A DNA stretch of 26,379 nucleotides, from the IMG/VR virus record IMGVR_UViG_2698536576_000002. One strand, written 5' to 3'. This DNA comes from a virus. Lineage: Duplodnaviria > Heunggongvirae > Uroviricota > Caudoviricetes. The position numbers were made by a program, and so were the translations under genes. Positions 2,007-25,244 of this stretch are shown here, piece by piece (position 1 is the first letter of the stretch; every line of letters starts with the position of its first letter). A model generated the notes under the pieces. That model searched no databases, was not told the DNA's origin, and saw only the letters and a program-made list of their open reading frames with translations.

Positions 2007-4599
2007 TTGCATATTCCTTAGCCCAGCGGGGCAGTGATAATGTCTTAATAGCTGGCCATTCATCGGTATTCAGGCAGTCAGACAGGGTTCGCAGATTGCG
2101 GTGATATTCCTGTTGACCTGCCAGTTTTGCTTCTTCGCCCATCATGAAAATTTCAACCGGATAACGTCCGCATTCAATAGTTGTGCTGGCAACCAGAAAA
2201 ACGAAAGTTGGCTGCACTCCAAACTGTGCTTCATAACCGTCACTGTAGAATGCATCCTGAACGTGATAGCGGTAGTCGTAATAAGCGGTTTTGAATCGTT
2301 GAATATCCGCCGTAGTTTTCACGTCCATGATCCAGTGAAATTCAGGGATAATTTTGTCCGGACGGCACCGACACAAAATTCCTGTTTCAGGATCTTCCCA
2401 GTAAATTGATGATTCAGCGTGTCCGGCGCTTTCAACAAGCCATTGCCCCAGCGGCAAAGCCATAACGCTTTGATACATGAGTTCAATTTTCCGGCCTTCT
2501 TCCGCAGTGATAACCGTTTTTCCTGTGCTTGCGCATTCCATCAGAAACGCTTTCTCTTCTTCTTTTCCGGCGTTTGTACGGCGGTTAAATTCAGGTGCTA
2601 CGATAAAGCGGTTACTGAATTCTTCCGGTTCAAGTACCCGGCAGTGGAAAGCAGTTCCTAAATCGAGCGTTTTTGTCTTTGTGGTGTCCACGGGGGCATT
2701 TTTACGCCACAAATATAGTGCCGGAGTATCAGCAATGTCATCGAGCTGAGACTTACTGATACCGGGACCCGCGTGGTAATTCTCATTCGAAATTCCGTAA
2801 TAAATACCTGGCTCTATGTCTTCTACGATTACGGGATCTGCGACTTCGCCAGTTTCATCACTGCAATCGCGATGGGGATCGCTGCCAGCATTCTCATTGT
2901 GCGGATGTTCAGCGCCTTCCATTTCCTCCGGATCATTTTCCTTAGCTTCAACCTGACTCTCTTCATCGAATGTTTCCTGGTATGTTGCGTCGCCCATCAC
3001 CGCACCACAGTCAGGGCAGTTATCCCCGCCAGTCTGGCCGCAGGCATTGCAGGCTATTTCCGGTTCCTGTTGCACTACTGGCTCAGGTTGATTCATATCT
3101 GGGCTGGTTTTTTCCGTTTCTGGCTGGTTCTGGTACACACAATCGCGAGTCTGGATCCCCTTTACCCATTTCGGATCGTTCGGGTCGCTAATTCCGTCAA
3201 CAAATTCACCACGTGATGCAGCAAGCAATTTATCGGCATCGACAGGATTTTTTGATGGAATGTTTTTCCGGGCTTCATGGAGTTCTGCCCGCAGTTCCTG
3301 ATATTTCGCATCAACAGAATTTACCTGTGACTGAGCATCCAGCGGCTGCGTGTCCTGATGATGTTCAGTTGCGTCCGGTTCCATTGTTTCAGCCTCTCCC
3401 TGTTCAACTGCCGTTGTTCCAGATGGTTGCGGTTTTTCTTCATCATCCTGTTTTCCTTCTTCTGTTACTCGCTGCGGCATCGGGGCAGAGGAGCGACCGC
3501 AGGCAATATCCACGATTTCCGGATCAGGGTTGGCATGATCGGTTTCAGTCAGTACTTTGTTCAGATATTCAGTGACGTGCGCGGGGATGACCTCGATCCC
3601 AATTGGTGCTTCTTTTACGGACGCAACCACGATGGCGCGGGAATAATCCAGCCCGCCAGGCATGGTGATGAATTTGTCGCGGAAAACAGAAAAGGGCGGT
3701 TTATTTTCAGCGATAATTTCCTCAATGCGTTTAGCGTGTGCCGGATGAAGGTTATAGATGTCCAGATCCATTGAACGGGCCAGTACGCCAGTGGCTACGT
3801 CGCGCGCCAGTGACGTCAGATCGTGTACGAAACCTTCGCCGCGATCGGTGAGGTTTCCGCCGCCAGCATTAGCACCGGAAGCCGTGCGAGTGATGTGTGA
3901 AACACGATTACCCTTCATCCACTCTTTTGTCAGCAGTCCTCGATCGGTGTAGTCAGCGTTCAGGTATGCTTCGAAAAAAGCAGTTATCAGTCCCAGGTTT
4001 GAATTACCAGGATTAGGGAAAACTTTGTCAGTGTCACGAACCAGTTTGTGGAGTTCGCGAATTTCCAGCGGGTCGAGCAGGCTGGTTTTGTGGGAAACAG
4101 CCAGGGCAGTAACAGCCGGTAGTTCTTCAGCCCGAGCAATGTGTAATGCCTGGAGTCCGTCGCGTGAAACGTGCGTTACCGGTTTTTCGCTGCCGTGTTG
4201 AGCAAGCCAACGAATGGGCAGTTCCTGGCCAGAAATTGGGAGTAGCATATTCTCCTCAATCTCAGTCATGTCTTCGCCGTTGACGTTGGTATTGCCTTGA
4301 TAGTGAGCGTTGTCTGGTGCTGCTCCCGGTTTTAGTTCCCATGTCATGGAGTCTTTGCTGAGTTGATAGCGTTCACTCCAGGTAAAATCGATCTCACCTT
4401 CAGCGGGCAGGTCATTAACGACAGGAAAATTCGTGGCAACAGCTTTAAAATAGCTGCTCAGTTTTTTACCTGACTTAACGATCAGGTAGTCCAGAGTGGC
4501 ACAGGTCGATTCAAAATCGTTGCTTGCCCACAGGACGACGTCAGGTTCACCGGATGATTTTTTCGCTTTCCGTAACAGGAAGAGTGGTTTTGTGCTCAT
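1999..4599 (-). CDS. recE: RecE exonuclease VIII, 866 aa
   Basis: ORF 1999..4599, [30 protein letters not shown]...; full-length RecE-like. Confidence 0.9.
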
Positions 4600-4670
4600 T
4601 GTTTTTTAACCTCAACTCAGATTAAAATTCGTTTTGTTCAGTGAATGATCTTGCCGGATACACACTGTTC

Positions 4671-4695
4671 ATAGCCTGCGCCATACGCAGGCTAT
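4671..4695. other. Perfect 10-bp inverted repeat (ATAGCCTGCG-N5-CGCAGGCTAT) between racC and recE
   Basis: Read directly from the sequence; lies 6 nt after the racC stop and about 70 nt before the recE start; no U-run follows on the minus (transcribed) strand. Confidence 0.5.
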
Positions 4696-4700
4696 TTCTT

Positions 4701-4976
4701 TCAGATTTCACCTTTTAATTTCATTGCAATTAGAGTTGCCAGAAATTCGGCTTTTTTTTCTGCGGGCAGATTCTTTCCGATATGCACCAGGCACATTTTT
4801 TTGACACCTTCATCAAGTGTTTTTACGTTGCCTGATGGACCATCGATATCAACCACAGTGAATGGGGTTTCTTTATTTTCTGTTTTAATTACGTAGCCAA
4901 TGCGCTTTCCTTCCAGATTCACCTCGTGAACAATGTCATCGGTAGTTACAACAGTGGCTTCATAATTGGTAATCAT
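4701..4976 (-). CDS. racC: RacC, 91 aa
   Basis: ORF 4701..5024; start MITNYEATVVTTDD preceded by AGGAG. Confidence 0.8.
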   Translation of the reverse strand: MITNYEATVVTTDDIVHEVNLEGKRIGYVIKTENKETPFTVVDIDGPSGNVKTLDEGVKKMCLVHIGKNLPAEKKAEFLATLIAMKLKGEI

Positions 4977-5050
4977 GTTTTTCTCCTTAATTAAGGTTGA
5001 GCGAATACCTGCCATTTCTGGCATAAATTCAGTTTCGAATAGTCAATTAA

Positions 5051-5221
5051 TTAAAGTTCATGTGCCATCTGGTCTTTTTCGGCACAAGCTTCACTGCAAT
5101 ATTTTCTCGGTTCGTCTTTTGATAAAATCCCGTGCATGAAGTGAAGCATTCTTTCAATAGCTTTGCTTTCTTCAACGTCTTTTTTGCAAAGGTGGTAAGC
5201 ACATTTTATTTTCTTAGTCAT
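5051..5221 (-). CDS. ydaE: YdaE-like Cys-rich small protein, 56 aa (hand-translated; absent from ORF track)
   Basis: Minus strand reads [56 protein letters not shown]; its ATG overlaps the kilR stop as ATGA. Confidence 0.7.
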   Translation of the reverse strand: MTKKIKCAYHLCKKDVEESKAIERMLHFMHGILSKDEPRKYCSEACAEKDQMAHEL

Positions 5222-5442
5222 CACCATGACTCCGCCTTTACAGGTAAACCATCACGACCGAGGAAGACTTTAATCATGCGGTCAGTAATGCATGTTTTTG
5301 TGGTCAGGTTACGAATATATAGTTTTCGCTTTTTAATATTGTTTGCCGAGGCAATATATGTCCGGCCTTCATGAAGAACATAATCGCCAGGAGTCACACA
5401 CTGACGTGGTATTTCATCAGTTCCGAAGTGATGTGCAATCAT
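5221..5442 (-). CDS. kilR: KilR (FtsZ-targeting cell-division inhibitor), 73 aa
   Basis: ORF 5221..5454; start [15 protein letters not shown] with GGAGA 6 nt upstream. Confidence 0.8.
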
Positions 5443-5604
5443 AATTATCTCCATTTTTACAAATGAACTTTGTTGATGCGGTGCCTGGTGCCTCCAGGTG
5501 ACTGCAACCAGTTAACAATTACAGTCGGCTTTCCCACCCAAACCAATAAGGACTAACATGACTTTTAACTGTGCCACGTGCGCTTAGCCGCATTCACCGC
5601 ATCA

Positions 5605-5665
5605 CAAAATTCACTTTAAAAAGGGCGGACATCAGCCGAACTTCAAGAAAAAAACTGATGCCGCC
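5605..5665 (-). terminator. Candidate intrinsic terminator/attenuator on the minus strand upstream of kilR
   Basis: Imperfect stem GGCGGaCATCAG / CTGATGCCGCC (5624-5665) followed on the minus strand by TTTTTAAAGTGAATTTTG. Confidence 0.35.
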
Positions 5666-5883
5666 AGGACTACACACAGCAATGTCGTTATTTACAACCG
5701 GAGGCGCACTCCCACCATTTAAATTTAACAGACAAGACCGACTCTTTATGGATATCGGAAATGCGCCTTCGTGTTGTGCCCGGTTTTATTTCACCACCTC
5801 CGGGCTTCGGTGGTCTCGGCTATACCCCTACAGCGAGAGCTTGTGTTAACATTTCAATACCCTTACAGTTGAGAGTTATTGAT

Positions 5884-6372
5884 ATGTTGGATGTATTTAC
5901 TCCATTGTTGAAACTTTTTGCTAACGAGCCACTCGAAAGACTTATGTATACGATTATCATTTTTGGTCTCACTCTCTGGCTGATACCGAAAGAGTTTACT
6001 GTCGCATTCAATGCTTATACTGAAATACCTTGGCTCTTTCAGATTATCGTTTTTGCCTTTTCTTTCGTGGTCGCCATTTCCTTCTCAAGATTGCGAGCAC
6101 ATATTCAAAAGCATTATTCATTACTACCAGAGCAACGAGTATTGCTTCGTTTATCTGAGAAAGAAATCGCTGTATTTAAAGATTTCCTTAAAACAGGAAA
6201 TCTTATTATCACTTCTCCTTGCCGTAACCCGGTTATGAAAAAATTAGAACGGAAGGGCATCATTCAACATCAGAGTGATAGCGCAAACTGTTCTTATTAT
6301 CTCGTCACCGAAAAATACTCCCATTTTATGAAGTTATTCTGGAACAGCAGGAGTAGACGTTTTAATCGTTAG
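5884..6372 (+). CDS. sieB: SieB superinfection exclusion protein, 162 aa, membrane protein
   Basis: ORF 5761..6372; internal start MLDVFTPLLKLFANEPLERLMYTIIIFGLTLWLIPKEF; hydrophobic N-terminal half. Confidence 0.8.
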   Translation: MLDVFTPLLKLFANEPLERLMYTIIIFGLTLWLIPKEFTVAFNAYTEIPWLFQIIVFAFSFVVAISFSRLRAHIQKHYSLLPEQRVLLRLSEKEIAVFKDFLKTGNLIITSPCRNPVMKKLERKGIIQHQSDSANCSYYLVTEKYSHFMKLFWNSRSRRFNR

Positions 6373-6524
6373 CTTACTGTGTGCTTCTCCAACCATCGGC
6401 GCGCACCAGTTTCGGTTTTAAATGTTTTGCTTTTGGTATACGTCATGGCAGTGAACGTTCCATCCTGGTTGGGGAACACGCCGCACACCAGGGATTCGTT
6501 GTTGCCGAGGTCGATTTTTTGCAT
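6369..6524 (-). CDS. ydaF: YdaF-like small protein, 51 aa (hand-translated)
   Basis: Minus strand reads MQKIDLGNNESLVCGVFPNQDGTFTAMTYTKSKTFKTETGARRWLEKHTVS; its stop overlaps the sieB stop (convergent). Confidence 0.6.
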   Translation of the reverse strand: MQKIDLGNNESLVCGVFPNQDGTFTAMTYTKSKTFKTETGARRWLEKHTVS

Positions 6525-6534
6525 TTTGCGAATC

Positions 6535-6669
6535 TCACATCTTGTTGCTACGTATAGCGACTTCTGCCTGCCAGAGATCCCAGTCGTTGCTGCGTAAAGC
6601 CTGCACAGCCTGGTTGTAAGTGATACCGCAACAATCCATCAAATACTGAACTACTTCGTAATGCACCAT
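6535..6669 (-). CDS. ydaG: YdaG-like small protein, 44 aa (hand-translated)
   Basis: Minus strand reads MVHYEVVQYLMDCCGITYNQAVQALRSNDWDLWQAEVAIRSNKM. Confidence 0.6.
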   Translation of the reverse strand: MVHYEVVQYLMDCCGITYNQAVQALRSNDWDLWQAEVAIRSNKM

Positions 6670-6840
6670 CTTATCTATCCCCTTAACGCCGGGTGGCGGA
6701 ACTAACTGCTGCACTGCAAAATTTGAATCCCGCCGTCATGTTCATACGCCTCGGGCTGGCTACTTAACCCCTGACCACTGCCTGGTAACTCGAAGTATTG
6801 CCCGGCGTTCTGTGGGGCGGGGTGGGTTGGTAGGTATATA

Positions 6841-6881
6841 ATGTACTTTGTGTTCATCATTGTAAAGTACTTTAAGTACAT
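6841..6881. promoter_or_regulatory. OL-like operator pair: two 17-bp imperfect palindromes with invariant ATGTACT half-site (6841-6857 and 6865-6881)
   Basis: ATGTACTttgTGTTCAT and, on the minus strand, ATGTACTtaaAGTACTT; centres 24 bp apart; located between the repressor gene 3' end and the leftward small genes. Confidence 0.45.
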
Positions 6882-6956
6882 TTTATGTATAAAAAAATGA
6901 GACGGGATAAAGTGAAGCACAAACCCGGAGGGGGACGCTACCGGATTTATGCTGGT

Positions 6957-7376
6957 TTAAGAGGCTTTTTGTTTTTTCTTTCGTGCTAACTCTTCGTAAA
7001 TTGCATTGTACTTCTGTTTTTTCTCCTCAAGAGTTTTTAAAAGTTCATCTGTCTCACTGTCAGGGAGCTCGTCCAGAAGGTCAATGATGATTTTTTGTCT
7101 TGGATTTAACTCCTGATAGAAACGTATCTGTCCACTTTCTTCTGTATCCTCTCCCAAAAGATAGGTTGGTGTTGTTCCAATGAGTGTTGCTAATTCCCTT
7201 AATTTCTCTCGGCGAGGAATTGTTTCACCATTAAACCATTTGCTAACCGCTTTTGGTGTTAATTTCATTCGACGGGCAATTTCTGCCTGCCTTCCATGTT
7301 GTTCATAACCAGCGTTTTCACAGGCTAGCGCAAGCCTACTGGCGAACTCTTTACGCGCTTTATCTTCATGAACCAT
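6957..7376 (-). CDS. racR: Prophage repressor, XRE-family helix-turn-helix (RacR-like by position), 139 aa
   Basis: ORF 6957..7376; HTH segment QAEIARRMKLTPKAVSKWFNGETIP; charged, coiled-coil-like C-terminus; divergent from the cro-like gene. Confidence 0.6.
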   Translation of the reverse strand: MVHEDKARKEFASRLALACENAGYEQHGRQAEIARRMKLTPKAVSKWFNGETIPRREKLRELATLIGTTPTYLLGEDTEESGQIRFYQELNPRQKIIIDLLDELPDSETDELLKTLEEKKQKYNAIYEELARKKKQKAS

Positions 7377-7396
7377 AAGTTCAATGATATTCGCTC

Positions 7397-7441
7397 TTGA
7401 ATGTACTGTCAGTTCTGTTATAGCATGTACTCAAAGTTCAC
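7397..7441. promoter_or_regulatory. OR-like divergent promoter/operator region: sites ATGTACTgtcAGTTCTG (7401-7417) and ATGTACTcaaAGTTCAC (7425-7441); candidate rightward promoter TTGAAT-16-TATAGC
   Basis: Read from sequence; same half-site and same 24-bp centre spacing as the OL-like pair; the sites overlap the -35 and -10/+1 of the candidate cro promoter. Confidence 0.45.
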
Positions 7442-7455
7442 ATTGTGAGGATGAT

Positions 7456-7710
7456 ATGAACCAGAAAACACTTGAAGATGTAATCAAAACTGTTCGCGTT
7501 TCTGTTGTGGCCGACGTTTGTGGTGTCAGCCAAAGAGCAATCTACAAATGGATGGATAACGGAAAATTGCCTCGCACAGAATATACCGGCGAAACAAATT
7601 ACGCTGAAAAAATCGCTCATGCATCAAACGGATTATTTTCTGCCGATGCAATTTTAACTATTGGCAGAAATAAAACTACTACGAAAAAGCTGATGGGAGT
7701 TGATTCATGA
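7456..7710 (+). CDS. Cro-like small HTH regulator (YdaS-like by position), 84 aa
   Basis: ORF 7384..7710; start MNQKTLEDVIK with GAGGATGA upstream; HTH segment VADVCGVSQRAIYKWMDNGKLP; stop overlaps the next start (ATGA). Confidence 0.6.
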   Translation: MNQKTLEDVIKTVRVSVVADVCGVSQRAIYKWMDNGKLPRTEYTGETNYAEKIAHASNGLFSADAILTIGRNKTTTKKLMGVDS

Positions 7711-8129
7711 AAATCAAGCATGAGCACATCGAATCAGTGTTGTTAGCCCTGGCAGCCGAAAAAGGGCAGGCGTGGGTCGCTAACGCAATTACTGAAGAAT
7801 ATCTGCACCAGGGGGGCGGCGAATTGCCCCTGGTACCAGGCAAGGACTGGAACAATCAGCAGAATATCTATCATCGTTGGTTGAAAGGTGAAACGAATGC
7901 GCAAAGGGAAAAAATTCAGAAACTGATCCCTGCGGTTCTGGCAATTCTTCCTCGCGAGCTGCGTCACCGACTCTGCATCTTCGATACCTTGGAACGCCGT
8001 GCATTACTGGCGGCACAGGATGCACTGAGTACGGCAATTGATGCGCATGATGATGCAGTCCAGGCCGTTTACCGTAAAGCACATTTCAGCGGCGGCGGTT
8101 CTCCTAGCGATTCTGTCGTAGTGCATTGA
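7707..8129 (+). CDS. ydaT: YdaT-like protein (CII-position), 140 aa
   Basis: ORF 7707..8129 MKIKHEHIESVLLALAAEKGQAWVANAITEEYL; translationally coupled to the cro-like gene. Confidence 0.65.
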   Translation: MKIKHEHIESVLLALAAEKGQAWVANAITEEYLHQGGGELPLVPGKDWNNQQNIYHRWLKGETNAQREKIQKLIPAVLAILPRELRHRLCIFDTLERRALLAAQDALSTAIDAHDDAVQAVYRKAHFSGGGSPSDSVVVH

Positions 8130-8142
8130 TTGAAATTAATCG

Positions 8143-8164
8143 TACCGAACTGTTTTGTTCGGTA
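8143..8164 (+). other. Hairpin TACCGAAC-N6-GTTCGGTA after ydaT (no clear U-tract)
   Basis: Perfect 8-bp inverted repeat read from sequence, 14 nt after the ydaT stop. Confidence 0.3.
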
Positions 8165-8174
8165 TCAGTTAAAT

Positions 8175-8615
8175 GTAACGCTGCGAGCGTTACAAGGTGA
8201 AAACAAATGGCTTCAAACTGGATAAAGCTCGAAGTTATTACGCCGGATAAGCCGGAAATATTCAGGCTTGCTGAGATTCTGAATATTGATCCAGATGCCG
8301 CATTAGGGAAAGTCATTCGCTTCTGGGCATGGGCGGATCAACAAATGATAGACGGTAACGCAGAGTGTAACGCTCGAGGCGTTACAAAAAGTGCAATAGA
8401 CCGTATCACTTTTATGGCTGGTTTTGCTGATGCGTTAATTCAGGTTGGATGGCTGGTCGAAAGTGATGGAGTGCTTTCACTACCAAACTTTGAGCGTCAT
8501 AACGGAAAAAGCTCGAAAAAACGGGCGGTTACAAACGAGAGAGTTACAAAAATACGCGAACTGAAGCGAAAAGGTAACGCTGCCAGCGTTACACAAACGG
8601 ATCAAAAAGCGTTAC
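8175..8615. repeat. Iteron-like set: three 19-bp palindromes GTAACGCT-N3-AGCGTTAC (8175-8193, 8367-8385, 8574-8592) plus half-sites (8525-8532, 8541-8547, 8608-8615)
   Basis: Read from sequence; first copy 14 bp upstream of the ydaU start, the others inside its 5' third. Confidence 0.55.
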
Positions 8616-8995
8616 CAGAGGAAGAGGAAGAGGAAGATATAAATACTGATCTCCCCCTAAATCCCCCTCGGCAAAAACGAGCGTCTAAACAATTCGAGCC
8701 GGAGGCCATTGCTCTGCCCGACTGGTTGCCAGAAACACTCTGGAATGAGTGGGTCCAGTTCAGGCAGGCATTGCGAAAACCGATTCGAACGGAGCAGGGC
8801 GCTAACGGGGCGATACGGGAACTGGAAAAATTCCGCCAGCAGGGTTTTACCCCTGAGCAGGTGATTCGACACAGCATCGCCAATGAATACCAGGGCTTGT
8901 TCGCGCCGAAAAGTGTTCGGCCTGAGACGTTGCTCCGACAGGTTAACACTGTCTCGTTTCCGGACAGTGCGATCCCGCCAGGCTTCAGGGGGTAA
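8207..8995 (+). CDS. ydaU: Replication initiator-like protein (YdaU-like, O-position), 262 aa
   Basis: ORF 8207..8995; AAGGTGA RBS; acidic linker EEEEEED; precedes a DnaC-like gene. Confidence 0.65.
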   Translation: MASNWIKLEVITPDKPEIFRLAEILNIDPDAALGKVIRFWAWADQQMIDGNAECNARGVTKSAIDRITFMAGFADALIQVGWLVESDGVLSLPNFERHNGKSSKKRAVTNERVTKIRELKRKGNAASVTQTDQKALPEEEEEEDINTDLPLNPPRQKRASKQFEPEAIALPDWLPETLWNEWVQFRQALRKPIRTEQGANGAIRELEKFRQQGFTPEQVIRHSIANEYQGLFAPKSVRPETLLRQVNTVSFPDSAIPPGFRG

Positions 8996-9001
8996 CTGAC
9001 C

Positions 9002-9748
9002 ATGAAAAATATTGCGACAGGCGGCGTTCTGGAACGTATCCGCAGACTGGCCCCGCCACATGTAACCGCGCCATTCAGGACGGTGGCGGAGTGGCGCGAG
9101 TGGCAACTTGCAGAAGGCCAGAAACGTTGCGAGGAGATCAATCGCCAGAATCGTCAGTTGCGGGTGGAAAAAATTCTGAATCGCTCCGGCATCCAGCCGT
9201 TGCACCGCAAATGCTCGTTTTCGAATTACCAGGTGCAGAACGACGGCCAGCGATACGCGTTGAGCCAGGCGAAATCCATCGCCGATGAACTGATGGTCGG
9301 GTGTACAAATTTTGCGTTTAGCGGAAAACCTGGTACCGGAAAAAACCATCTGGCGGCGGCTATCGGGAATCGCCTGCTGAAAAACGGTCAGACAGTGATT
9401 GTGGTTACCGTGGCTGATGTTATGAGTGCTCTACACGCCAGCTATGACGACGGGCAATCAGGCGAAAAATTTTTGCGGGAACTGTGCGAAGTGGATCTGC
9501 TGGTTCTTGATGAAATTGGCATTCAGCGCGAGACAAAAAACGAGCAGGTGGTACTGCACCAGATTGTTGATCGCCGGACAGCGTCGATCCGCAGCGTGGG
9601 GATGCTGACAAACCTGAACTATGAGGCCATGAAAACATTGCTCGGCGAGAGGATTATGGATCGGATGACCATGAACGGCGGGCGATGGGTGAATTTTAAC
9701 TGGGAGAGCTGGCGCCCGAATGTTGGTCAGCCAGGAATTGAGAAGTAA
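9002..9748 (+). CDS. ydaV: DnaC/IstB-like AAA+ helicase loader (YdaV-like), 248 aa
   Basis: ORF 9002..9748; Walker A GKPGTGKNHL, Walker B LLVLDEIG. Confidence 0.8.
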   Translation: MKNIATGGVLERIRRLAPPHVTAPFRTVAEWREWQLAEGQKRCEEINRQNRQLRVEKILNRSGIQPLHRKCSFSNYQVQNDGQRYALSQAKSIADELMVGCTNFAFSGKPGTGKNHLAAAIGNRLLKNGQTVIVVTVADVMSALHASYDDGQSGEKFLRELCEVDLLVLDEIGIQRETKNEQVVLHQIVDRRTASIRSVGMLTNLNYEAMKTLLGERIMDRMTMNGGRWVNFNWESWRPNVGQPGIEK

Positions 9749-11614: not shown

Positions 11615-12283
11615 ATGACAGTTGCTGATTTCAAACGTCCTAAGTTGGAGCTCCCAAACGGGGCAAACAAACTACTATTACACTCTTGTTGTGCACCATG
11701 TTCCGGTGAAGTGATGGAGGCTCTTCAGGCCTCAGGAATCGACTACACCATCTTCTTCTATAATCCGAACATTCATCCTCAGAAAGAGTATTTGATTCGT
11801 AAGAATGAGAATATTCGATATGCTGAACAACATGGTGTACCGTTTATCGATGCTGATTACGACACTGACAACTGGTTTGAGCGAGCCAAAGGAATGGAAT
11901 GGGAGCCCGAACGTGGGAGGCGTTGTACTATGTGTTTTGACATGCGTTTTGAACGGACGGCGCTGTACGCCGCTGAAAATGGTTTCAGTGTGATCAGCAG
12001 TTCACTGGGCATTTCTCGCTGGAAAAATATGCAGCAGGTTAACGACAGCGGACGGCGAGCTGTCGCACATTATCCGGGCATGGTGTACTGGGATTATAAC
12101 TGGCGCAAGCAGGGAGGCTCGTCCCGCATGATTGAAATCAGCAAACGCGAACAATTCTATCAGCAGGAATATTGTGGTTGCGTGTATTCACTTCGCGATA
12201 CCAATTTACACCGCAAATCCCAGGGACGCCCTCTTATCAAAATTGGTCAACTCCACTACGGTAAAGAAGAAGGGCAGGAATGA
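11615..12283 (+). CDS. QueH-like epoxyqueuosine reductase (DUF208 family), 222 aa
   Basis: [11 protein letters not shown] near the N-terminus, [18 protein letters not shown] and YCGC Cys motifs, which I recognise as QueH family features; no search run. Confidence 0.5.
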
Positions 12284-15884: not shown

Positions 15885-15960
<76 letters not shown>

Positions 15961-15963
15961 TAT

Positions 15964-16038
<75 letters not shown>

Positions 16039-19586: not shown

Positions 19587-19723
19587 TATATGGCTGATTT
19601 ATAATTGTGAGTTTAATATTATATTGACTCACTCATTGATCCAATACCTAACTTTACCAGCAACACCTCCGCCCCCAGTAGCACTGGCTGCTGGGGTGCG
19701 TTTTATTCATAAAGCAAGGCTGT

Positions 19724-20512
19724 ATGAGCGAGAAATTAAAGATAGTCTATCGCCCATTACAAGAATTGTCACCGTATGCGCACAACGCCAGGACGCACAG
19801 TACTGAGCAGGTGGCACAACTGGTAGAAAGTATTAAGCAATTCGGCTGGACTAATCCGGTGCTGATTGACGAAAAGGGCGAAATTATTGCGGGTCACGGT
19901 CGTGTTATGGCGGCTGAAATGCTCAAAATGGATTCTGTTCCGGTCATTGTTCTGTCTGGCCTGACGGATGAGCAGAAAAAGGCGTACCGCTTGGCAGATA
20001 ATCGCCTACCGATGAATGCTGGCTGGGATGAAGATCTGTTGCGGATGGAGCTGTCGGTCCTAATCAATGCTGATTTTGATGTCTCCCTGACAGGCTTCGG
20101 CCCGACAGAAATTGATGAACTGTTGACGGATGTTTTGCCCGGTACAGGAAATAAGGAGGAGCCGTATACGACGAAAATTGATACGCCTGTTTATGAGCCG
20201 TCGGGCGGTAAACCGGATATCAGTGAACTGTACGACGATACGAAAACTCAGGAGCTGATCAGCCGGATACGTTCGGCGTCCCTTGATCCTGATATTGAGA
20301 AATTCCTCCTGTGTGCGGCAGAACGTCACACGGTGTTTAATTTCAGCAGAATTGCGGACTATTACGCTCATGCCCCCGCTGAAATTCAGTGCCTTTTCGA
20401 GGAGTCGGCGCTGGTGATCATTGATTATCAGCAGGCTATTGAAAATGGATTTGTCCGAATGACGCAGCGCATGGTGGAGATCATGCATGGCGGGGAGGAG
20501 GAATATGCGTGA
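19724..20512 (+). CDS. ParB-like nuclease domain protein (full-length YnaK-like), 262 aa
   Basis: ORF track; N-terminal ParB/Srx-type segment LQELSPYAHNARTHSTEQVAQLVESIKQFGWTNPVLIDEKGEIIAGHGR. Confidence 0.6.
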   Translation: MSEKLKIVYRPLQELSPYAHNARTHSTEQVAQLVESIKQFGWTNPVLIDEKGEIIAGHGRVMAAEMLKMDSVPVIVLSGLTDEQKKAYRLADNRLPMNAGWDEDLLRMELSVLINADFDVSLTGFGPTEIDELLTDVLPGTGNKEEPYTTKIDTPVYEPSGGKPDISELYDDTKTQELISRIRSASLDPDIEKFLLCAAERHTVFNFSRIADYYAHAPAEIQCLFEESALVIIDYQQAIENGFVRMTQRMVEIMHGGEEEYA

Positions 20513-21263
20513 TGATTTTTGCGCCTTTATTCTGACTCACGGGCGACCGGAAAAAGTTCTGACTTACCGGACGTTGCGTCGTGCTGGCTATACCGGGAAA
20601 ATTTTTATCGTTGTTGATGATGAAGATAAGACACGGCATCAGTACATGGCTGAATTTGGTGAACAGGTGCTGGTATTTTCCAAAGCCGATATCGCCAGTC
20701 GTTTTGACGAAGCCGATAATTTTGGTGACCGCCGCTCAATTTTTTACGCCCGTAATGCCTGTTTCGACCTGGCAAAACTGGTCGGGTGTAAATACTTCAT
20801 TCAGCTCGATGATGATTATCACGAGTTCCAGTTTCGGGTGGATCGCAACTATGACCAGGCCTATTTTCCGATAAGGAAACTGGATGCGATCCTTTCTGAA
20901 ATGCTGGCGTACTACGAATCAATACCTGTTCTTTCCATCGCTATGTCGCAGGGCGGGGATTTTCTTGGTGACAATGGCGGCCATGCTTCGTGGGTGAAAC
21001 GCAAGGCAATGAACAGCTTTATCTGTTCGGTTGATCGACCGTTCTCATTCATGGGGCGCATTAACGAGGATGTGAATACGTACACGAATCTCGGTCGCTG
21101 TGGTGAATTGTTTATGACGATCGGTGCTGTCCAGTTAGGGCAGAAACAGACGCAGAAAAACAGCGGCGGAATGACCGAGCTGTATCTGGATTCCGGAACC
21201 TACGTTAACCGAATCCCATCTCGGCAAGGAGCTGCTGGAAAAAGTCGAGCTGACGGAGGATAA
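20505..21263 (+). pseudogene. YdaY-like gene with GT-A-like motifs; 3' end replaced by J-derived sequence
   Basis: Start MRDDFCAFILTHGRPEKV with GGGGAGGAGG upstream; IFIVVDDED and LDDDY motifs; from about 21187 the DNA encodes J-homologous sequence in another frame. Confidence 0.45.
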
Positions 21264-22137
21264 CGCCAGCAAACTGGAGGAGTTTTCGAAAGAGTGGAAG
21301 GACGCCAACGATAAATGGAATGCCATGTGGGGCGTCAAAATTGAGCAGACCGAAGACGGCAGGCATTATGTCGCGGGGCTTGGCCTTAGTATGGAGGATA
21401 CGGAGGAAGGCAAACTGAGCCAGTTCCTGGTTGCCGCTAACCGTATCGCGTTTATTGACCCGGCAAACGGGAATGAAACGCCGATGTTTGTGGCGCAGGG
21501 CAACCAGATATTCATGAACGAAGTGTTCCTGAAGTATCTGACGGCTCCCACCATTACCAGTGGCGGCAATCCTCCGGTATTTTCCCTGACACCGGACGGG
21601 CGGCTGACGGCGAAAAATGCCGATATCAGCGGTAACGTGAATGCGAACTCCGGGACGCTCAATAATGTCACGATTAACGAGAACTGTCGGGTTCTGGGAA
21701 AACTGTCCGCGAACCAGATTGAAGGCGATCTCGTTAAAACAGTGGGCAAAGCTTTCCCCCGGGACTCCCGTGCACCGGAGCGGTGGCCATCAGGGACTAT
21801 TACCGTCAGGGTTTATGACGATCAGTCGTTTGACCGGCAAATTGTTATTCCAGCGGTGGCTTTCTGCGGTGCCAGACATGAGCGGGAGAATAGCGATACT
21901 TATTCGTCATGCCGCCTGATAGTGAAGAAAAACGGGGCTGAAATTTATAACCGAACGGCTCTGGATAATACTCTGATTTACACGGGTGTTATTGATATGC
22001 CTGCAGGCAGTGGTGTAATGACACTGGAGTTTTCTGTATCAGCATGGTGGGTAAATGGCTGGTATCCCACAGCAAGTATCAGCGATTTGCTGGTTGTGGT
22101 GATGAAGAAAGCCACTACAGGCATCACGATTAGCTGA
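21187..22137 (+). pseudogene. C-terminal fragment of host-specificity/tail-tip protein J (about 315 codons)
   Basis: Frame reads ...[54 protein letters not shown]...[26 protein letters not shown], matching the lambda J C-terminal region as I remember it; no N-terminal part and no other tail genes present. Confidence 0.7.
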
Positions 22138-22858: not shown

Positions 22859-22868
22859 TGGAGTGGAT

Positions 22869-25244
22869 ATGGCAGCAGTAAAAATCTCAGGTGTGCTGAA
22901 AGATGGTGCGGGAAAACCAATACAGAACTGCACTATTCAACTGAAGGCAAAGCGTAACAGCACCACGGTACTGGTGAACACGGTGGCCTCTGAAAATCCG
23001 GATGAAGCCGGGCGTTACAGCATGGATGTTGAGTATGGCCAGTACAGCGTCACCCTGCTGGTTGAAGGTTTTCCGCCTTCACATGCCGGGACCATTACCG
23101 TCTATGAAGGTTCCAGACCAGGTACGCTGAATGATTTTCTCGGTGCCATGACGGAAGATGATGTCATGCCGGAGGCATTGCGTCGTTTTGAGGAAATGGT
23201 GGAAGAAGCGGCACGCAACGCTGAAGCCGCCTCTCAGAGCGCAGCGGCGGCAAAGAAATCCGAAACTGCAGCGGCATCATCGAAGAACGCGGCGAAAACC
23301 TCAGAAACGAATGCAGCTAACAGCGCACAGGCGGCAGCGACCTCACAGACTGCATCGGCAAACTCCGCGACAGCAGCCAAAAAATCAGAAACCAACGCGA
23401 AAAACAGTGAGACAGCCGCAAAGACGAGCGAAACCAACGCAAAGTCCAGCCAGACGGCAGCGAAAACCAGCGAAACGAATGCTAAAGCCAGTGAAACTGC
23501 GGCAAAAAACAGCCAGGTTGCAGCAGCCCAAAGCGAGAGCGCGGCAGCCGGTTCTGCGACTTCAGCAGCTGGATCAGCAACTGCTGCGGCTAACAGCCAG
23601 AAAGCTGCGAAGACGAGTGAAACTAACGCAAAGTCCAGCCAGACGGCAGCGAAGACCAGCGAAACGAATGCCAAAGCCAGTGAAACTGCGGCGAAAAGCA
23701 GTCAGGATGCAGCGGCTCAAAGCGAGAGTGCCGCAGCCAGTTCTGCAAGCGCGGCGGCTGCTTCTGCCACTGCATCAGCTAACAGTCAAAAAGCAGCAAA
23801 AACCAGTGAAACCAACGCAAAGGTGAGCGAAACAGCGGCTGCGAACTCAGCGAAAGCATCGGCAGCAAGCCAGACGGCAGCTAAAGCAAGCGAAGATGCA
23901 GCCAGAGAGTACGCAAGCCAGGCTGCGGAGCCGTATAAATATGTCTTACAGCCGCTGCCTGATGTGTGGATACCATTTAACGATTCGCTGGATATGATTA
24001 CGGGCTTTTCGCCGTCATATAAAAAAATTGTTATTGGTGACGATGAAATAACGATGCCTGGCGACAAGATTGTTAAGTTTAAACGTGCATCGAAAGCAAC
24101 CTATATTAACAAATCTGGTGTGCTGACAGAGGCTGCCATTGACGAGCCACGATTTGAACGTGATGGCCTGCTTATTGAGGGGCAAAGAACAAACTACATG
24201 CTCAATTCGGAAAGCCCTGCCAGTTGGGGGCGATCGTCAAATATGGATGTGCCCGAAACAGGGACGGATAATTTTGGTTTTACCTATGGAAAGTTTGTCT
24301 GCAACGATTCTCTGATTGGGCAAACCTCAGCCATTAATATGGCATCAATTGCTGCAACAAAGTCAGTTGATGTCTCAGGCGATAATAAACACGTGACAAC
24401 CTCATGTCGTTTTAAAACAGAACTGCAGGTAAGGTTGCGTATCCGGTTTGATAAATATGACGGTAGCGCAACAACTTTTCTTGGTGATGCGTATATTGAT
24501 ACACAAACGCTTGAAATTAATATGACAGGCGGTGCTGCCTCAAGGATTACAGCGAGAGTCAGAAAGGACGAAGCTACCGGATGGATTTTTGCAGAGGCAA
24601 CAATTCAGGCAATTGATGGGGAGTTAAAAATAGGCTCTCAGATACAGTATTCTCCTAAGCAGAGCGGGGCAACCGTATCTGGTGACTATATTTATCTGGC
24701 CACCCCACAAGTAGAAGATGGGCCTTGTGTATCATCTTTTATTATATCAGGAGCGACGGCGGCGACCCGCGCAAGCGATATAGTTACAGTTCCAATTAAG
24801 AATAATCTTTATAATCTTCCTTTTACGGTTCTTTGTGAGGTACATAAGAACTGGTATAAAACGCCAAATGCAGCGCCACGTGTTTTTGATACCGGCGGTC
24901 ATCAAACCGGAGCGGCTATTATTCTTGGCTTCGGTCGTTCAACAGATTACGACGGATTTCCTTATTGCGATATTGGAGGAGCTAACAGACGGGTAAACGA
25001 AAACGCATCGCTTGAAAAAATGGTTATGGGGATGCGTGTAAAGTCAGAGCAGTCTACGTGCTCAGTAAGTAACGGGCATATATCCAGCGAAACAAAAACC
25101 ACATGGTCCTGTATTCAGAACACCGCAATTATCCGTATTGGAGGCCAGACTACAGCCGGGTTACGTCATTTATTTGGTCATGTCAGGAATTTCAGAATAT
25201 GGCACAAGGCATTGACTGATGCTCAGGTGGGGGAGTCAATCTAA
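22869..25244 (+). CDS. Side tail fibre protein (Stf-like N-terminus, Ala/Ser/Thr-rich repeat shaft, distinct C-terminal domain), about 791 aa
   Basis: ORF 22863..25244; ATG at 22869 gives MAAVKISGVLKDGAGKPIQNCTIQLKAKRNSTTV, lambda Stf-like; C-terminus ends ...HVRNFRIWHKALTDAQVGESI. Confidence 0.85.
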   Translation: MAAVKISGVLKDGAGKPIQNCTIQLKAKRNSTTVLVNTVASENPDEAGRYSMDVEYGQYSVTLLVEGFPPSHAGTITVYEGSRPGTLNDFLGAMTEDDVMPEALRRFEEMVEEAARNAEAASQSAAAAKKSETAAASSKNAAKTSETNAANSAQAAATSQTASANSATAAKKSETNAKNSETAAKTSETNAKSSQTAAKTSETNAKASETAAKNSQVAAAQSESAAAGSATSAAGSATAAANSQKAAKTSETNAKSSQTAAKTSETNAKASETAAKSSQDAAAQSESAAASSASAAAASATASANSQKAAKTSETNAKVSETAAANSAKASAASQTAAKASEDAAREYASQAAEPYKYVLQPLPDVWIPFNDSLDMITGFSPSYKKIVIGDDEITMPGDKIVKFKRASKATYINKSGVLTEAAIDEPRFERDGLLIEGQRTNYMLNSESPASWGRSSNMDVPETGTDNFGFTYGKFVCNDSLIGQTSAINMASIAATKSVDVSGDNKHVTTSCRFKTELQVRLRIRFDKYDGSATTFLGDAYIDTQTLEINMTGGAASRITARVRKDEATGWIFAEATIQAIDGELKIGSQIQYSPKQSGATVSGDYIYLATPQVEDGPCVSSFIISGATAATRASDIVTVPIKNNLYNLPFTVLCEVHKNWYKTPNAAPRVFDTGGHQTGAAIILGFGRSTDYDGFPYCDIGGANRRVNENASLEKMVMGMRVKSEQSTCSVSNGHISSETKTTWSCIQNTAIIRIGGQTTAGLRHLFGHVRNFRIWHKALTDAQVGESI
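23419..23797 (+). repeat. Tandem duplication of a 189-bp unit (two copies) inside the fibre shaft, itself built from about 33-bp subrepeats
   Basis: AAGACGAGCGAAACCAACGCAAAGTCCAGCC at 23421 recurs as AAGACGAGTGAAACTAACGCAAAGTCCAGCC at 23610; protein repeat KTSETNAKSSQTAAKTSETNAKASETAAK. Confidence 0.7.

Follow-up and report, generated by a model that had tools for sequence, protein, structure and literature searches.

Glycosylation of phage DNA is understood almost wholly through hydroxymethyl-pyrimidine pathways, namely those of the T-even phages, of TET-linked systems and of base J. Phage glycosyltransferases of the GT-A (glycosyltransferase A) fold sugar-modify 5-hydroxymethylcytosine (5hmC) in DNA, and ParB-like neighbours of such enzymes have been named in passing (bioRxiv 10.1101/2023.12.21.572611); among the TET-associated glycosyltransferases (TAGTs), the enzyme of phage T6 has been credited with adding the second glucose (PMC13390438). 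Here we analyse ynaK and the TAGT gene that overlaps its 3′ end in a 26,379-nucleotide (nt) stretch of viral DNA (IMG/VR record IMGVR_UViG_2698536576_000002; hereafter the window), the whole of which is a Rac-type defective lambdoid prophage of Escherichia coli. In this known cryptic prophage the copy of the pair lost its function recently and, as a remnant, is ordinary in itself. The module from which it descends is widespread and uncharacterised, a variant of phage TAGT systems that depends on a partner but not on TET; prophages and tailed viruses of archaea and of many bacterial phyla carry it. We show that TAGT and the C-terminal domain of YnaK form a reciprocal, translationally coupled and sometimes fused pair, and that this domain, not the ParB domain, is the true conserved partner of the enzyme.

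The TET/JBP-associated TAGTs, which sugar-modify 5hmC or 5-hydroxymethyluracil after replication, and the other phage GT-A DNA glycosyltransferases have in common with the enzyme studied here the Pfam domain PF20691, a GT-A fold with an aspartate-x-aspartate (DxD) motif and encoding by phages. The TET/JBP-linked enzymes are also alike in that tandem paralogues and sugar-nucleotide epimerases accompany them at some loci. They differ in two respects: the carriers examined here have no annotated TET/JBP, C5-methylase or hydroxymethylase, and the present clade has an obligate partner with a private C-terminal domain, together with an invariant C-terminal extension of the enzyme that runs from K235 to W265.

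A second comparison is with the beta-glucosyl-HMC-alpha-glucosyltransferase of T2 and T6 (HMC or hmC, hydroxymethylcytosine), the name that labels PHROG 842, the PHROG to which both this enzyme and that of the window belong. The T4-like form is a distant structural relative (E 2.3e-8, TMq 0.58), yet the T-even-type enzyme and the window clade are only about 13–25% identical, and the T4-like homologue in Aeromonas phage Ah1 (25% identity) has no YnaK-type partner within 5 kb. T-even phages themselves provide glucosyl-hmC as acceptor, whereas the siphovirus carriers cannot make it, and no T-even phage was returned by tblastn of isolated phages at E 1e-5. We reject orthology on the low identity, the missing T-even match, the absent partner in Ah1 and the lack of an hmC pathway; because the T-even acceptor is not made here, the PHROG-derived name on siphovirus genes is an over-annotation.

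The pair occupies the following positions of the window.

19724–20512, plus strand: ynaK, intact, 262 amino acids (aa), encoding a ParB/Srx N-terminal domain, a linker and a C-terminal partner domain.
20165–20473, plus strand: TAGT-associated C-terminal domain of YnaK (aa 148–250), the motif YTTKIDTPVYEPSG (20165–20206) followed by a domain of 4–5 helices.
20495–20502, plus strand: Shine–Dalgarno sequence GGAGGAGG of the TAGT gene, as read from the sequence, inside the 3′ end of ynaK and 2 nt before ATG 20505.
20505–21208, plus strand: truncated TAGT-family GT-A glycosyltransferase, codons 1–234 of 310, with the DxD motif at 20808–20816.

Even the truncated enzyme covers positions 4–205 of the 205 of the TAGT profile PF20691 (TET-associated glycosyltransferase; E 1.2e-34, 120.5 bits against a cutoff of 27.5), and it matches phrog_842 at E 1.6e-103. 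It carries GKIFIVVDDED at aa 31–41 and IQLDDDY at aa 99–105, in which D102 and D104 are invariant, and D103 more than 90% conserved, among 102 homologues. An AlphaFold2 model of the intact E. coli homologue P0001, built with these homologues, is confident (pLDDT 85.4, pTM 0.83), and the named top Foldseek matches in the PDB are all GT-A enzymes: ColGalT1, GnT-I, K4CP (chondroitin polymerase), GalNAc-T2, SpsA and glycogenin. These matches are all remote (E about 1e-4, 8–14% identity), and therefore no close relative of TAGT has been solved; among viral models the best matches are TAGT-domain proteins, with TM up to 0.85. RefSeq names the E. coli protein ‘GREB1-related’. In defence-system libraries, TAGT has no PADLOC match and YnaK matches just the ParB part of a methylase model.

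Translation of the TAGT gene begins at ATG 20505, the start that its family supports; the in-frame ATG 20487 is excluded because every homologue begins M-x-DDF. This start overlaps the end of ynaK (stop TGA, 20510–20512) by 8 nt, ATGCGTGA, and the position of the Shine–Dalgarno sequence within ynaK predicts translational coupling of the two genes.

YnaK is identical to WP_001291108.1 of an intact prophage and matches phrog_620 at E 3e-89. Its N-terminal domain (aa ~5–95), with GHGR at 57–60 and LADN at 90–93, scores above threshold against Pfam ParB_N (PF02195; 29.3 bits, cutoff 26.3). The best solved relatives of this domain are Spo0J and ParB (E 2e-5), and in the alignment to Spo0J (1vz0) GHGR stands opposite GERR and LADN opposite LVEN. 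Residues 3–141 are closest to the ParB part of phage ParB–DNA-methyltransferase fusions (phrog_498, E 3e-50; PADLOC MTase_II, E 6e-38), which offer the nearest functional analogy: they have the same ParB part, lie in the same place upstream of terminase genes and follow the same logic of a ParB_N module joined to a DNA-modifying enzyme. Unlike in those proteins, the catalytic partner of YnaK is a glycosyltransferase on a separate, coupled chain, engaged through an adaptor domain, and fusions are rare. The N-terminal domain is also homologous to that of partition ParB/Spo0J, a CTP-dependent DNA clamp, but YnaK falls below the cutoff of that family (TIGR00180, 38.1 bits against 58.45, with the N-terminal domain alone aligned), the partition helix-turn-helix and dimerisation domains are not recognised, and the C-terminal half is unrelated to partition ParB. 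No ParA is annotated beside ynaK in the intact prophage and phages examined. YnaK is therefore not a partition ParB.

The C-terminal domain of YnaK consists of a motif region, YTxK..PxYEP, of low AlphaFold2 confidence and a helical part, FLxxAAxRHxVFNF..IADYYAHA..E.Q.LFEESALVIID. A helix of this part, FLxxAAxRHxVFNY (aa 199–218, ~20318–20377), gives a sub-threshold match to PF23887 (mycobacteriophage L5 gene 47-like), which recurs in 11 of 56 members of the domain (best E 0.022 over 20 residues) and is too weak to interpret. In the genomes identical to the window, RefSeq lists ynaK as a 258-nt pseudogene ‘missing C-terminus’ (19724–19981; L001:12125–12382), though the open reading frame (ORF) is full length, a call that we take to reflect comparison with the shorter K-12 YnaK reference.

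An original prediction for this DNA, made from the sequence without database searches, had described a full-length ParB/Srx-type protein whose gene overlaps by 8 nt, behind a strong ribosome-binding site, that of a protein with GT-A motifs. Each of these points stands, with profile matches above cutoff for both proteins and a structural model of the fold that it named. Its further suggestion that the two genes belong together is borne out, the pair being kept almost without exception in 160 diverse loci, with the refinement that the conserved element of the first protein is the C-terminal domain and not the ParB domain to which the prediction had pointed.

To compare relatives, hidden Markov models were built for ParB_N, the YnaK C-domain and TAGT and scanned over 80 diverse IMG/VR loci and 80 GTDB loci, the latter spanning an archaeon and more than 10 phyla, among them Bacteroidota, Bacillota, Proteobacteria, Verrucomicrobia, Planctomycetes, Acidobacteriota, Spirochaetes, Saccharibacteria and Chlorobi. 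A query of viral contigs with the single E. coli protein had returned just near-identical E. coli prophages, and an alignment headed by a distant member was used instead. The C-domain lies beside TAGT in 78 of the 80 IMG/VR and 78 of the 80 GTDB loci; in the four exceptions TAGT is at a contig edge with no room upstream, hence all 156 informative loci are paired. The reverse search, from the C-domain, found TAGT in 44 of 44 non-enteric loci. In an alignment of the partners, what they share besides ParB_N is a C-terminal region of ~110 aa with the consensus YTxKIxxPxYEPxG, then FLxxAAxRHxVFNYxxIAEYYAHAxxExQxLMExSALVIID. ParB_N, C-domain and TAGT occur as a single chain at locus L108 and in protein clusters P0244, P0245 and P0246, and cluster P0243 is a TAGT–TAGT fusion; such natural fusions are counted as genetic evidence only. 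The window shows the same arrangement, a co-oriented neighbour that encodes the C-domain and overlaps the TAGT start by 8 nt.

These counts bear on the simplest alternative, that the two genes are functionally unrelated neighbours, YnaK being a packaging-site or partition ParB, or a nuclease, in the service of the terminase, while the glycosyltransferase is a moron in its own right. Terminase genes often have ParB-like and HNH genes beside them, and YnaK is annotated as a ‘partition protein’; set against this are the reciprocal pairing in 156 of 156 and 44 of 44 loci, the stop/start overlap and the recurrent fusions, the conservation of the C-domain rather than ParB_N, the existence of C-domain-only partners away from terminase genes and the score below the TIGR00180 partition cutoff. 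We regard this alternative as very improbable, and on the conserved C-domain and the reciprocal pairing we reject both a partition ParB and a terminase-accessory nuclease as descriptions of YnaK.

Relatives in which the second gene is intact, which the original prediction had proposed to seek, encode a 310-aa TAGT between YnaK and the terminase genes. They include a prophage of E. coli WP4-S18-ESBL-07 (locus L002) and isolated phages such as vB_EcoS-683R6, with the order Q, tRNAs, S, R, Rz, trkG, ParB/Srx (262 aa), TAGT (310 aa), a 69-aa ORF, TerS, TerL and portal; further 3′ the intact prophage continues from the portal through the tape measure to J, lom and stf. The 69-aa ORF (L002:16816–17025) overlaps the 3′ end of the intact TAGT gene, precedes the annotated 364-aa TerS and matches the middle of the small-terminase family phrog_309 (E 1e-17); it may be a split or accessory small-terminase piece. 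By tblastn of isolated phages, TAGT is present in phages of Escherichia/Salmonella, Lactobacillus, Nocardia, Vibrio, Porphyromonas and the archaeon Haloarcula, with 28–47% identity outside the enteric phages. An overlapping ParB-like gene precedes it in phi jlb1, HHTV-2, c5, NTR1 and the Porphyromonas phage, as in most of the metagenomic loci, and in phage c5 the YnaK–TAGT pair is the first thing after cos.

The ParB_N domain is optional. At 19 loci the partner is a C-domain alone (123–153 aa) that begins just before the YTxK motif, and a gene for a DnaN-like beta-clamp (Pfam DNA_pol3_beta) lies beside the module at 12 of these 19 loci versus none of the 121 with ParB_N plus C-domain. Loci with a C-only partner beside a DnaN-like gene include L089, L132 (L132:5613–7960, for example), L138, L140, L157, L161, L163, L184, L195, L201 and L247. 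Within their first ~25 residues, 16–17 of the 19 C-only partners have an [LM]F dipeptide, compared with 12% of background ORFs, often as QxxLF or QxxMF (KQTNLFG, IQKTLFG, QSELFTV, QFTMFG); bacterial beta-clamp-binding motifs are of the QL[SD]LF type. Modifying enzymes of a second kind also adjoin the pair: fusions of ParB_N to an N6_N4-methylase lie directly upstream of the partner at L088:3930–5105 and L117:3988–5274, where, to judge from domain content, two ParB-tethered modifying modules stand in tandem before the terminase genes. At L225, a weak match indicates that the N terminus of the partner is fused to a class I methyltransferase-like domain.

We propose that, in an intact Rac-like phage, YnaK and the 310-aa TAGT GT-A enzyme would be made by coupled translation, presumably late and from a Q-dependent transcript, the timing being presumed because the pair lies between the lysis genes (with the trkG moron) and the terminase genes. 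The YnaK C-domain, with its YTxK..PxYEP motif, would bind TAGT as a subunit or specificity factor, and the N-terminal module of the partner would carry the complex onto DNA. In one form of the partner this module would be a nucleotide-binding ParB/Srx domain, like those joined to phage DNA methylases; in the form found in larger phages it would be a peptide that binds and recruits the beta-clamp encoded by the phage itself. Once on replicated phage DNA, and before that DNA is packaged, the enzyme would add to it a hexose taken from a UDP-sugar and so shield it from host nucleases, and the acceptor would be something other than a 5-hydroxymethyl-pyrimidine, since the carriers make none. That a YnaK–TAGT complex tethered by ParB_N or the clamp glycosylates replicated phage DNA, the remnant in the window being inactive, is in our judgement evenly balanced between right and wrong. 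More tentative, and on present evidence rather doubtful, is the chemical part of the proposal, in which TAGTs of this clade, together with the YnaK C-domain, would glycosylate DNA without prior hydroxymethylation, delivered through ParB/Srx or the beta-clamp, on canonical DNA or on a novel acceptor made by the phage; a sugar on canonical DNA could sit on the backbone, on a base amine or at DNA ends, candidate sites that carry the same reservation. The original prediction had ventured a nucleic-acid-modifying module as speculation, and this is strengthened, short of proof, by the TAGT family assignment, the methylase-type ParB domain and the alternation of ParB_N with the beta-clamp.

Several points weigh against DNA glycosylation. 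In the complete genome of phage c5 (31.8 kb, 50 ORFs) and in the Rac-like phage, no thymidylate-synthase-like hydroxymethylase, TET/JBP, C5-methylase or polymerase is annotated, and phage c5 has no unassigned ORF long enough to be a hydroxymethylase, TET/JBP or C5-methylase. With no hydroxymethyl-base enzymes annotated, the acceptors of the known TAGT systems are therefore absent from these phages, and we found no precedent for direct glycosylation of canonical DNA. We infer DNA as the target of the ynaK–TAGT clade from its genes and their neighbours, and the missing acceptor is the chief weakness of that reading. DNA binding and nucleotide binding by YnaK are, moreover, predictions from homology, and the GxxR motif varies among partners (GHGR, GHTR, GNQR, GNGV). 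The N-terminal motif of the C-only partners resembles a beta-clamp-binding motif, a likeness of sequence, and late expression is presumed from gene order. Finally, GREB1, a TAGT-domain protein of animals, O-GlcNAcylates the oestrogen receptor ER-alpha (PMC7968844), so that at least one member of the wider family acts on a protein.

This last precedent favours a different acceptor, a protein: a virion or packaging protein of the adjacent operon, or the partner itself through YTxK..PxYEP, as in self-glucosylating glycogenin. GREB1 has the TAGT domain in common with the E. coli protein but differs in being a 1949-aa multidomain cytoplasmic O-GlcNAc transferase that acts on ER-alpha, with no ParB-type partner and no phage context. 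Closer to hand, the pair lies directly before terminase, portal and capsid genes in small siphoviruses, the first large gene 3′ of it in small siphoviruses and prophages being the terminase large subunit in most of 58 loci; the YTxK..PxYEP motif contains two invariant tyrosines (Y14 and Y23 in alignment A5) in a region of low AlphaFold2 confidence; glycogenin is among the structural neighbours of TAGT; and the absence of a hydroxymethyl-pyrimidine pathway is no obstacle to a protein acceptor. Large phages, however, keep the module among genes for replication (primase, helicase, beta-clamp) and not structural ones, as in Vibrio phage pv27, where genes for a primase, an exonuclease and a helicase surround the C-only partner and TAGT. 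Both interchangeable N-terminal modules of the partner are DNA-associated devices, ParB_N–DNA-methylase fusions occur in tandem with the pair, and self-glycosylation would leave the exclusive alternation of ParB_N and DnaN unexplained. Glycosylation of a protein thus seems to us unlikely, though it is the most credible of the alternatives to a DNA target.

Other neighbours hint at the chemistry of the sugar or its acceptor. Beside TAGT, some loci encode a bona fide GalE or other NAD-dependent sugar-nucleotide epimerases or dehydratases, and some a DNA N6/N4 methylase. Between two and five tandem TAGT paralogues accompany one partner gene at L157 (five; 4249–9218), L097, L109, L120, L123, L124, L132, L136, L158 and L161, which suggests stepwise building of a glycan or several specificities. 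In ~10% of the diverse viral loci, TAGT is directly followed by a radical S-adenosylmethionine (SAM) enzyme of ~280–330 aa (around 315), MoaA/viperin/SPASM-like by weak NCBIfam matches (L109, L110 (6867–7805), L114, L128, L130, L134, L136 and L154); it may produce or modify either the sugar or the acceptor.

The MoaA/viperin-like enzymes, which act on nucleotides, lend some colour to another kind of acceptor: host DNA, RNA or tRNA, or a small nucleotide, for instance a defence signal, with the ParB/Srx domain binding nucleotides or transferring phosphate. Enzymes that bind NTP or carry out phosphotransfer are known with the ParB/Srx fold, and the lack of a hydroxymethyl-base pathway fits this explanation as well. 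The association with the beta-clamp nevertheless points to duplex DNA, the neighbourhoods hold no pointers to a signalling pathway, TAGT is without a PADLOC match and, because C-only partners exist, ParB_N is dispensable and cannot supply the essential chemistry. A nucleotide or RNA acceptor is accordingly improbable in our view, more so than a protein.

If the module does modify phage DNA, it would represent new acceptor chemistry and a general principle, in which ParB_N or the beta-clamp delivers DNA-modifying enzymes, and would matter for how phages evade restriction, for artefacts in the sequencing of prophage-derived DNA and for enzymatic tools for DNA labelling. A direct test is feasible, since Rac-like E. 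coli phages, Lactobacillus phage c5 and phi jlb1 carry intact copies and can be cultivated. A literature search that did not extend to the 2013 paper defining TAGT (Iyer et al., Nucleic Acids Res.) found no paper that mentions ParB together with TAGT, DNA glycosylation or beta-glucosyl-HMC, and no account of the YnaK C-domain or of the obligate pairing; the papers on HHTV-2 contain no DNA-modification data.

In the window itself the module cannot work, as only YnaK survives intact. The TAGT gene ends in a deletion junction, beyond which the sequence derives from the tail-tip gene J.

21206–21208, no strand assigned: deletion junction with TAA microhomology (3 nt), joining TAGT codon 234/235 to J codon ~822 of 1137.
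21209–21263, plus strand: 18 foreign codons, from J in another frame, and the stop (21261–21263) of the chimeric ORF.
21208–22137, plus strand: C-terminal ~310 codons of the tail-tip gene J (tmpR-like remnant), 94% identical to gpJ of the intact prophage.

Truncation of the second gene by J-derived sequence had been predicted correctly, but the breakpoint had been placed at about 21187, ~20 nt short of the true junction: the window equals the intact copy up to 21208 save one base, and homology to J begins at 21206. The J remnant has no start codon of its own before 21325 and is labelled ‘phage tail tip domain, missing N-terminus’ by PGAP. Relative to NZ_AP022087 the deletion spans ~19.3 kb, and all head and tail genes are gone. 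Among 5426 complete E. coli genomes, the exact junction occurs in 11 and the intact 3′ end of TAGT in 867 (about one in six). The sole nucleotide difference over 1609 nt, at 20929, changes alanine to valine at residue 142 of TAGT, a position more than 90% conserved among the homologues; A142V is compatible with relaxed constraint after truncation, and a single change proves nothing. We take the deletion to be recent because of this single difference in 1.6 kb and the presence of the junction in just 11 of the 5426 genomes.

The deletion removes the last 76 TAGT codons, including K235, F237, Y238, P244, R258, H261 and W265, seven residues invariant in the 102 homologues. Since the lost segment is also well ordered in the AlphaFold2 model, the truncated enzyme is almost certainly dead. 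Many other E. coli ORFs fuse the front of TAGT or YnaK to varied prophage genes (P0021, P0040, P0042, P0045, P0207, P0208, P0215 and P0231), the fused pieces being tail tip, tail fibre repeat, tail fibre assembly, Lom and terminase C-domain sequences. This variety of chimeras indicates that Rac-like prophages have lost their morphogenesis genes by independent deletions with left ends in the ynaK–TAGT pair.

The survival of YnaK, intact and identical to the copy of a functional phage even though the genes downstream are gone, could be taken to mean that the pair serves the host in the lysogen, through phage exclusion or tolerance of stress or antibiotics, and that the remnant is kept for this reason. 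A genome-wide screen of MG1655 genes found ynaK to raise the minimum inhibitory concentration (MIC) of six antibiotics (PMC12924614), and prophage glycosyltransferases have been raised as possible defences (bioRxiv 10.1101/2023.12.21.572611). But the MIC data concern the K-12 ynaK gene, strictly lytic large phages also carry the module, and the deletion is recent (1 nt difference in 1.6 kb; junction in 11 of 5426 genomes), so that the intactness of YnaK needs no selection. The pair, furthermore, stands in the late region behind a hairpin.

19673–19706, plus strand: terminator-like hairpin and T-run (TGCGTTTTAT) between trkG and ynaK, 18 nt 5′ of the ynaK ATG, found by consensus scan.

The stem of this hairpin, by the same scan, is at 19673–19696 and has 10 pairs, 7 of them GC. 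Service to the lysogen is, on balance, a long way from probable, and we retain modification of replicated phage DNA as the preferred function of the intact module.

The ynaK/‘GREB1-related’ pair of the Rac prophage is an already annotated locus: positions 19600–21400 match 11 complete E. coli chromosomes at 100% identity, in which the genes are labelled trkG, ynaK (ParB/Srx family), ‘hypothetical / GREB1-related protein’ and ‘phage tail tip domain protein’. Elsewhere in the window, the nin-like region of the prophage contains an ORF for a QueH-like protein (epoxyqueuosine reductase) at 11615–12283, and genes for tRNA-Thr(TGT) and tRNA-Gly(TCC) lie at 15885–16038; in the related, intact vB_EcoS-683R6 both tRNA genes are found between the Q-like antiterminator and the lysis genes. 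Downstream of the J remnant, the side tail fibre gene (22863–25244) encodes a long stretch rich in alanine, serine and threonine with repeated units of the AAKTSETNAKSSQTAAKTSETNAKASETAAK type.

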